From a virus (Duplodnaviria; Heunggongvirae; Uroviricota; Caudoviricetes): a DNA stretch of 9,725 nucleotides. The translations under genes and the position numbers were made by a program. This document shows positions 1,893 through 2,085 of this stretch, piece after piece (position 1 is the first letter of the stretch; each line of letters opens with the position of its first letter). Below the pieces are notes generated by a model. The model was not told where the DNA came from, did no database searches, and was given only the letters and a program-made list of their open reading frames with translations. The DNA lies in the IMG/VR virus record IMGVR_UViG_2531839454_000019, one strand, 5' to 3'.

Positions 1893-2054
1893 CTGGCAGG
1901 TGAAAATCAGGTTTATTTATATATTTCAATTAATTGCAAACTGGTCTAATGACAGGGAGAAAAAAATATTGTACAGGTGAAAAGAGAAATAACTTTTAAT
2001 TATCAATAAATTACCAAACATGCTGCCGCCGCCATGGAAATGCAAAAACTAGTC

Positions 2055-2085
2055 TTTTTCCGCGACGCTCCCGCCCCGTGGCAGG
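2055..2085 (-). other. Putative cosN cohesive-end site (uncut, prophage state)
   Basis: Minus strand reads ACGGGGCGGGAGCGTCGCGGAAAAAG, closely resembling lambda cosN ACGGGGCGGCGACCTCGCGGGTTTTC (recalled). It is a GC-rich island flanked by AT-rich DNA, and its distance to the Nu1-like start (~185-196 nt) matches the lambda cosN-to-Nu1 spacing (~190 nt). AT-rich 1893-2055 would be cosB. Confidence 0.55.

Follow-up and report, generated by a model that had tools for sequence, protein, structure and literature searches.

Positions 1880–2105 of the DNA analysed here, a stretch of 9,725 nucleotides referred to below as the window, very probably form the complete cos site, i.e., cosQ, cosN, and cosB, of a lambdoid prophage of the cdtI/Tritos type. 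Both this cos and the widespread type of prophage to which it belongs are already known, and deposited records of such phages start at the very base predicted here, so the identification of a cos site in this stretch is correct but not new. The site is read on the minus strand, toward a small-terminase gene of the DUF1441 family, and base pairs (bp) are numbered from the predicted left end of the mature chromosome, with bp 1 at position 2076.

Identity with Deposited Phages and Chromosome Ends

By megablast, the cos region together with the small-terminase gene is 99.2–99.7% identical to the corresponding parts of phages cdtI (AB285204/NC_009514), Tritos (OV696610), and HannyBb (PP925841), the last being an isolated phage that is 99.5% identical over the region. 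The records of both cdtI and Tritos have as their position 1 the equivalent of window position 2076 on the minus strand, and both end with ...CCACG, at the equivalent of 2077, which means that the depositors had already set base 1 at the predicted left end. On this evidence the end of the mature phage genome, which an earlier reading made from the letters of the window (hereafter the sequence-only reading) had assigned to this site, appears to be placed correctly. Tritos, a prophage of LF82, forms plaques and siphovirus particles, and the paper describing it comes without a stated method for setting the genome ends (PMC9928086); our literature search turned up no report in which termini with the GGGCGGGAGCGT cohesive end had been mapped directly.

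Records of less closely related phages also begin at or near this point. In the LLS record, bp 1 is the first base, and a "5' extended single-strand cohesive site GGGCGGCGCGCT" of 12 nt is listed among the features; the authors describe this site as inferred, with reference to Vahanian et al. 2017 and to M. Feiss. The record of Hafnia phage yong2 begins at bp 13 and closes with the phage's own 12-mer, and that of mEp460_4F5 starts 5 bp ahead of the nick (−5).

The region is common in Escherichia coli, since 2031 of 5426 complete genomes match it, with 868 of them covering at least 80% of its length and 1163 having partial matches only; strain 2014C-4587 is 100% identical. A 99% identical copy of the cos and small-terminase region was also encountered in a metagenome-assembled genome labelled Veillonella parvula (L016, JAGZPX010000007.1), and this contig is almost certainly a binning contaminant.

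The same data bear on a different reading, namely that this is a true cos lying in a defective prophage and never cut. Many lambdoid prophages of E. coli are defective, the partial matches make up 1163 of the 2031 genomes with a match, and the window leaves out the head, tail, and replication genes, so that neither intactness nor inducibility can be read from it. Nonetheless, we consider such a relic unlikely, given the 99.5–99.7% identity to the plaque-forming HannyBb and Tritos, the intact reading frames of both the small and the large terminase, and the intactness of all the cos subsites, which are described in the following two sections.

cosN and the Predicted Cohesive End

From 2079 to 2060 the minus strand reads ACGGGGCGGGAGCGTCGCGG, and within it cosN can be delimited as CG/GGGCGGGAGCGT/CG (2063–2078, slashes marking the predicted nicks) on the basis of the comparison with lambda, of shuffled sequences, and of the ends of the deposited records. 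The predicted 12-nt 5' cohesive end, GGGCGGGAGCGT, runs from 2076 to 2065, and the nicks are predicted to fall between 2077 and 2076 on the minus strand and between 2065 and 2064 on the plus strand. The lambda junction is ...GTTACG/GGGCGGCGACCT/CGCGGG..., and the two cohesive ends share 8 of 12 bases, with mismatches solely at bp 7, 8, 9, and 11. The left half, GGGCGG at bp 1–6, is the same as in lambda at all six positions, as are the CG dinucleotides beside both nick positions, a criterion taken from PMC4669245. All four differences thus fall in bp 7–12, a placement that fits the natural variation reported by Feiss 2015 (PMC4669245), where changes in this part of cosN are described as common and tolerated. 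Two-fold symmetry, counted by hand over the 12-mer and two flanking bp per side, amounts to 8/16 here and 10/16 in lambda, the latter in agreement with the figure for lambda cosN in PMC9026076.

The pattern ACGGGGCGGNNNCNTCGCGG, in which all the positions shared with lambda are fixed, has a single occurrence in the window and turned up in none of 200 shuffles of it made with dinucleotides preserved (0/200), and for this reason a chance GC-rich resemblance to lambda cosN was rejected. Judged from its bases, the GGGCGGGAGCGT site is the place where a lambda-type cos is nicked, its cosN, while the nick positions themselves we infer. Both the minus-strand variant of lambda cosN differing at a few positions and the 12-nt cohesive end proposed in the sequence-only reading are in line with these results, the overhang as a prediction supported by the retained left half and CG flanks.

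Literature searches with the cohesive ends returned unrelated eukaryotic papers only for GGGCGGGAGCGT and single-molecule methods papers only for GGGCGGCGACCT. An open reading frame of 51 amino acids (2003–2158, minus strand) crosses cosN, and overlapping frames are listed as hypothetical proteins in HannyBb; the frame would be divided in virion DNA, and its prediction is probably spurious.

cosQ, Spacer, and cosB

Upstream of cosN, the heptamer GGGTCCT (2099–2105, minus strand) occupies −29 to −23 relative to the top-strand nick and is identical to the lambda heptamer, which lies at −30 to −24. Related loci have either GGGTCCT or AGGTACT at this position, and cosQ is described by Feiss 2015 as a highly conserved 7-bp site (PMC4669245). 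The heptamer of the window is the packaging-termination signal and is located beyond the range 1893–2085 that had been considered in the sequence-only reading. An imperfect cosQ-like copy, GGGTCCC at 2084–2090 (minus strand), is found 15 bp downstream of GGGTCCT; it is probably incidental, because it is not conserved in Tritos or cdtI.

On the other side of cosN, the proximal spacer CGCGGAAAAAGACTAGTTTTTG (2043–2064, minus strand, bp 13–34) was recognized by its conservation: it is nearly invariant over all the DUF1441 subtypes compared, regardless of the core that lies downstream. It may serve for positioning or for nicking by the large terminase. The spacer is followed by an element at the position of R3, CATG-GCGGCGGCAG-CATG (2019–2036, minus strand, bp 41–58), identified from its position and its covariation with the small terminase, and proposed here as the binding site of the small terminase and a putative determinant of specificity. 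For comparison, R3 occupies bp 50–65 in lambda (PMC9026076) and bp 48–60 in N15 (PMC4669245). Similarity to mEp460 stops at bp 40, immediately ahead of the element.

An IHF core consensus, TATCAATAAATTA, follows on the plus strand (2001–2013, bp 64–76); it matches WATCAANNNNTTR exactly and takes the place of I1 in lambda. The window has just one other match to WATCAANNNNTTR. The position of the consensus at bp 64–76 is kept in most relatives, and as a consensus match it marks a candidate site at which IHF probably bends the DNA.

Copies of the R3-position core resembling the inverted R2 and the direct R1 of lambda were searched for within bp 60–260 and none was found; the best match to the bp 45–58 core in that interval has 7 mismatches in 14 positions and was equalled by 296 of 300 shuffles. 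Extra core copies are present in Fels-1, Trabulsiella, and LLS. The lambda-like cosB layout claimed in the sequence-only reading is, therefore, present in part: this applies to the element at the R3 position, to the IHF consensus, and to the spacing between the cohesive end and the start codon, while the R2/R1 copies are absent from bp 60–260.

The cosB contains two copies of the repeat TTCACCTG, both on the minus strand, the first at 1974–1981 (bp 96–103) and the second at 1897–1904 (bp 173–180), just upstream of the ribosome-binding site. These are the only two copies in the whole window, they are partly conserved in relatives, and they are unrelated to the R3-position core; the first copy is a possible accessory cosB site. 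The sequence TTTTCACCTGNCAG, at the second copy, is shared by the window and Providencia phage PSTCR8lys, which has a small terminase of 56% identity, and it also occurs in locus L020. A general repeat search of cosB returned weak AT-rich repeats only, the TTCACCTG pair not being among them, and a promoter and terminator scan of 1800–2700 found none on the strand of the late transcript.

Packaging Specificity across DUF1441 Loci

To place this cosB among its relatives, the regions upstream of DUF1441 small-terminase genes were compared, using the conserved spacer as the anchor. The named phages were Fels-1, Gifsy-2, VT1-Sakai, mEp043, mEp460, Eeyore, LLS, yong2, and PSTCR8lys, and the other loci were metagenomic and genomic homologues at 57–89% identity along with 80 IMG/VR loci; a scan of genome contigs with a single small-terminase protein contributed 2 loci only. 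Nearly all the loci have the same layout, consisting of a cosQ-like heptamer, CCACG/12 nt/CGCGG, the spacer, and an R3-position element, and this layout, including an ATG at bp 196–198, is kept in relatives with small terminases down to 56% identity.

The core at bp 42–59 tracks strictly the predicted recognition helix of the small terminase, taken as residues 26–35 of an AlphaFold2 model, in the table of 90 loci. Helices of the type HRDTVKKRL go with the core GGCGGCGGCAGCATG, those of the type NRGTV(K/R)KRL with CTGTCAGCAGCAGGT, DRAT... with CGCATCATCAGCAGGT, DRK(A/S)V... with GGGACACCACCA, and HRQTV... with TCATCATCATCA. The cohesive ends behave differently: among the same 90 loci, HRDTVKKRL is paired with four different ends and NRGTV with 11 or more, among the latter the GGGCGGCGACCT of lambda, and an identical end is found with differing helix types. 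Phages of the mEp460 type illustrate the point, as their cosQ, cosN, and bp 1–34 are the same as in the window, and divergence begins at bp 40, with a different core and a small terminase that is 42% identical.

These results decide on the proposal of the sequence-only reading that the variant cohesive end GGGCGGGAGCGT could itself define packaging specificity. In lambda/N15 hybrids mismatched ends cut the yield about fourfold (PMC4669245), so the variant end could slightly disfavour hybrids. Against this, the lambda TerL cuts cosN variants equally well, and packaging specificity is reported to reside in cosB and TerS (Feiss et al. 2015, PMC4669245). In the 90 loci, one small-terminase type is accompanied by four to at least 11 ends, one of these groups having the end of lambda, the same end recurs with different small-terminase types, and mEp460 combines an identical end with a different core. 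Since the end varies freely within one small-terminase type and is shared with mEp460, the idea is not supported, and we regard a specificity role of the cohesive end as very improbable.

[quoted passage not shown] The proposed cores of the specificity types are GGCGGCGGCAG, CTGTCAGCAG, CGCATCATCAG, GGGACACCAC, TCATCATCA, and CGTCATCACC. We put this forward tentatively, at slightly less than even chances, on the strength of aligned sequences and a predicted helix. Under such a classification, the cdtI/Tritos type would have an N15-like "simple" cosB with an IHF site and two TTCACCTG sites. No paper describing a DUF1441 class of cosB was found, and Vahanian et al. 2017 may cover part of it.

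Several loci of the comparison deviate from the common layout. In mEp460_ev081 (L004, about 3380–3600), a tandem duplication of about 97 bp affects a cosB segment and spans the end of the spacer, the R3-position core, the IHF site, and an inverted copy; it is absent in mEp460_4F5 (L024, 1–190). In Trabulsiella guamensis (L017, 620–815), there are two tandem units, in each of which an R3-like core, GGGACACC..., is accompanied by an IHF-like site and by an inverted GAGGTGGG, and the ATG of the small terminase is displaced to bp 207. Gifsy-2 (L009, about 985–1010) has 14 nt, GGTGGCTTCGGGCT, between CCACG and CGCGGG, and VT1-Sakai (L011, about 965–990) has GGGCGGGCGGGC/GCGG, one base out of register, and these atypical cosN spacings reflect either differing overhang lengths or decayed cos sites. 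Finally, three loci with small terminases 62–89% identical (L018, L079, and L088) have no recognizable cosN or spacer in the upstream sequence examined, where the cos could be rearranged, degraded, or differently arranged.

Terminase Genes and Gene Context

The gene adjoining the site (1353–1892, minus strand) had been called Nu1-like in the sequence-only reading, a description that did not survive: its product belongs to Pfam family DUF1441 (PF07278, E = 1.7e-44), the only Pfam match, and does not match the Phage_Nu1 profile (PF07471), whereas lambda Nu1 and the Gifsy-1 protein match the latter at about 1e-100. A comparison with Nu1 by hhalign depends on the alignment used, giving a probability of 46.7% (E = 2e-4) when the whole family is aligned and of 4.5% when the subfamily is, and phmmer against the sequences of the PDB returned no meaningful match. 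The AlphaFold2 model of the protein (pLDDT 83.5) shows a beta-alpha-alpha fold with a beta-hairpin wing at residues 12–51, for which the best Foldseek matches are MerR-like winged helix-turn-helix (HTH) domains and the DNA-binding domain of a phage small terminase (7lwr), with probabilities of 0.9–0.99 yet with every E-value above 0.1. This N-terminal winged HTH in the model suggests that the small terminase probably works like Nu1, with no membership in the Nu1 family implied.

The small terminases annotated in cdtI and Tritos match the protein at 100% identity. The two records place its start differently, as cdtI annotates the first ATG, at 1892 or bp 185, and Tritos the second, at 1880 or bp 197, as relatives also do with starts reading MSN or MTN. 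The start at 1880 is probably the real one because of a GGAG located 6 nt upstream and of these starts in relatives; an ATG at bp 196–198 is found in 7 of 8 subfamily members. With either choice, the distance to the small-terminase start is close to that of lambda, where Nu1 starts at bp 191, as had been noted from the letters of the window.

Next to it, the large-terminase gene is represented by its N-terminal 448 codons (1–1344, minus strand) and continues past the edge of the window. It encodes GpA_ATPase (E = 1.9e-81) and GpA_nuclease (E = 8.3e-35) domains, which identify a large terminase of the lambda gpA type and uphold the assignment of cos-type packaging. These genes also bear on the possibility that the likeness to lambda cosN is due to chance, and that packaging starts elsewhere or is of the headful (pac) type. 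In its favour, 4 of the 12 cohesive-end bases are unlike lambda and the small subunit is outside the Nu1 family. It is nevertheless scarcely credible: none of the 200 shuffles produced a match, conservation across about 90 loci covers the cosQ, the spacer, and the spacing to the small-terminase gene, and gpA-family large terminases go with 5' cohesive ends (PMC12315714). Headful packaging was rejected on the grounds of the gpA-type large terminase and of the linear records of cdtI and Tritos, which end at unique positions here.

On the opposite side of the site, the late and lysis region upstream comprises Q, an S21-type holin, a lysozyme, a DUF2514 protein, a cold-shock gene, GnsB, and a YbcW-like gene. 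Having lysis and accessory genes on one side and terminase genes on the other, the site sits at the usual location of a lambdoid cos. Although Gram-negative phage-inducible islands carry lambda-like cosN sites (PMC9026076), the probability that this is the cos of a phage-inducible chromosomal island hijacking a helper terminase is negligible, being refuted by a gene context in which the site lies between the phage lysis cassette and the phage's own terminase genes, as in cdtI and Tritos, with no Rpp-like gene adjacent.

The genes at 2443–4008 encode the YbcW-like protein, GnsB, and the cold-shock protein. As the predicted nicks fix the mature ends, these genes would be at the right end of virion DNA, in agreement with the sequence-only reading, which had termed them morons; this label also appears apt, as the Tritos homologues cspI, cspB, and ynfN show high expression in lysogens (PMC9928086). 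A match to the Rfam cspA thermoregulator (RF01766, 107 bits; 3747–4163, minus strand) corresponds to the leader of the cold-shock gene at 3793–4008, whose Tritos homologues rank with the most strongly expressed genes of the prophage in lysogens (PMC9928086). Additional cargo is found between the Q antiterminator gene (9026–9418, minus strand) and the holin gene, spanning 6112–8870 and encoding a lipocalin (8346–8870, plus strand), a 2-thiouracil desulfurase/DUF1722 protein (7194–8153, minus strand), and an AraC-family regulator (6112–6699, minus strand).

Proposed Mechanism and Significance

The observed sequence features, their conservation, the families of the terminases, and the termini of the records suggest a course of events whose individual steps are predictions. 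During late lytic growth, the DUF1441 small subunit and the gpA-type large subunit would assemble on concatemeric DNA, with the winged HTH of the small subunit binding the element at bp 41–58 and IHF probably bending the DNA at bp 64–76. The large subunit, once anchored, would then nick CG/GGGCGGGAGCGT/CG twice, at positions separated by 12 bp. [quoted passage not shown]

For a very common type of E. coli prophage, the site fixes the orientation and the predicted ends of the virion chromosome, and it puts the Csp/GnsB/YbcW accessory genes at the right one. Nothing new is added to the concept of cos, as the variation of lambda-like cosN at bp 7–12 is documented and the deposited records already start here. 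The comparison of 90 loci is modestly useful, in that specificity appears to track the core of cosB together with the small-terminase helix, and not the cohesive end, and this tracking would predict which lambdoid prophages could cross-package DNA or mobilise satellites. The covariation between core and helix is the only part of these findings that may be new.

Comparison with Known Systems

The closest systems are cdtI, Tritos, and HannyBb, which carry the same element as the window with a few point differences in cosB; they differ from it in the right-arm cargo upstream of cosQ, and cdtI is without the Csp/GnsB block.

Other lambdoid phages, namely mEp460, mEp043, mEp213, LLS, Gifsy-2, Fels-1, and VT1-Sakai, combine a DUF1441 small terminase with a gpA-family large terminase, as the window does, and share with it the cosQ, CCACG/12 nt/CGCGG, the spacer, and an element at the R3 position. 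Their small terminases are 35–42% identical, their R3-position cores are TCATCATCATCA or CGTCATCACCAC, and several of them have clear inverted and direct extra core copies that are absent in the window.

With lambda itself, the site has in common the 12-nt 5' cohesive end with its GGGCGG left half and CG flanks, the cosQ GGGTCCT about 30 bp upstream, the gpA-family large terminase, an R3-position element followed by an IHF consensus, and a small-terminase start about 190 bp in. The differences are that cosQ in the window is 1 bp nearer the nick, that the small subunit is DUF1441 and not Phage_Nu1, that the sequence at the R3 position bears no relation to lambda R3 and is placed about 7 bp closer to cosN, and that R2/R1 copies were not found. 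Gifsy-1, which Feiss 2015 (PMC4669245) lists as a lambda-like cos varying at bp 8, 9, and 11, is still closer in its cohesive end, as GGGCGGCAGCGT differs from that of the window at bp 7 only, and has the same cosQ and CG flanks; its small subunit is instead a true member of the Nu1 family, and its R sequences are of the lambda/21 type.

Finally, N15 has a "simple" cosB, where one R3-position element (bp 48–60) is critical and no R2/R1 lies nearby (PMC4669245). The core of the window is likewise single-copy, and thus its cosB looks closer to this simple type; N15 differs in its Nu1-family small subunit and in a remote rR2 within the gene, while the window has the IHF consensus and the two TTCACCTG repeats.
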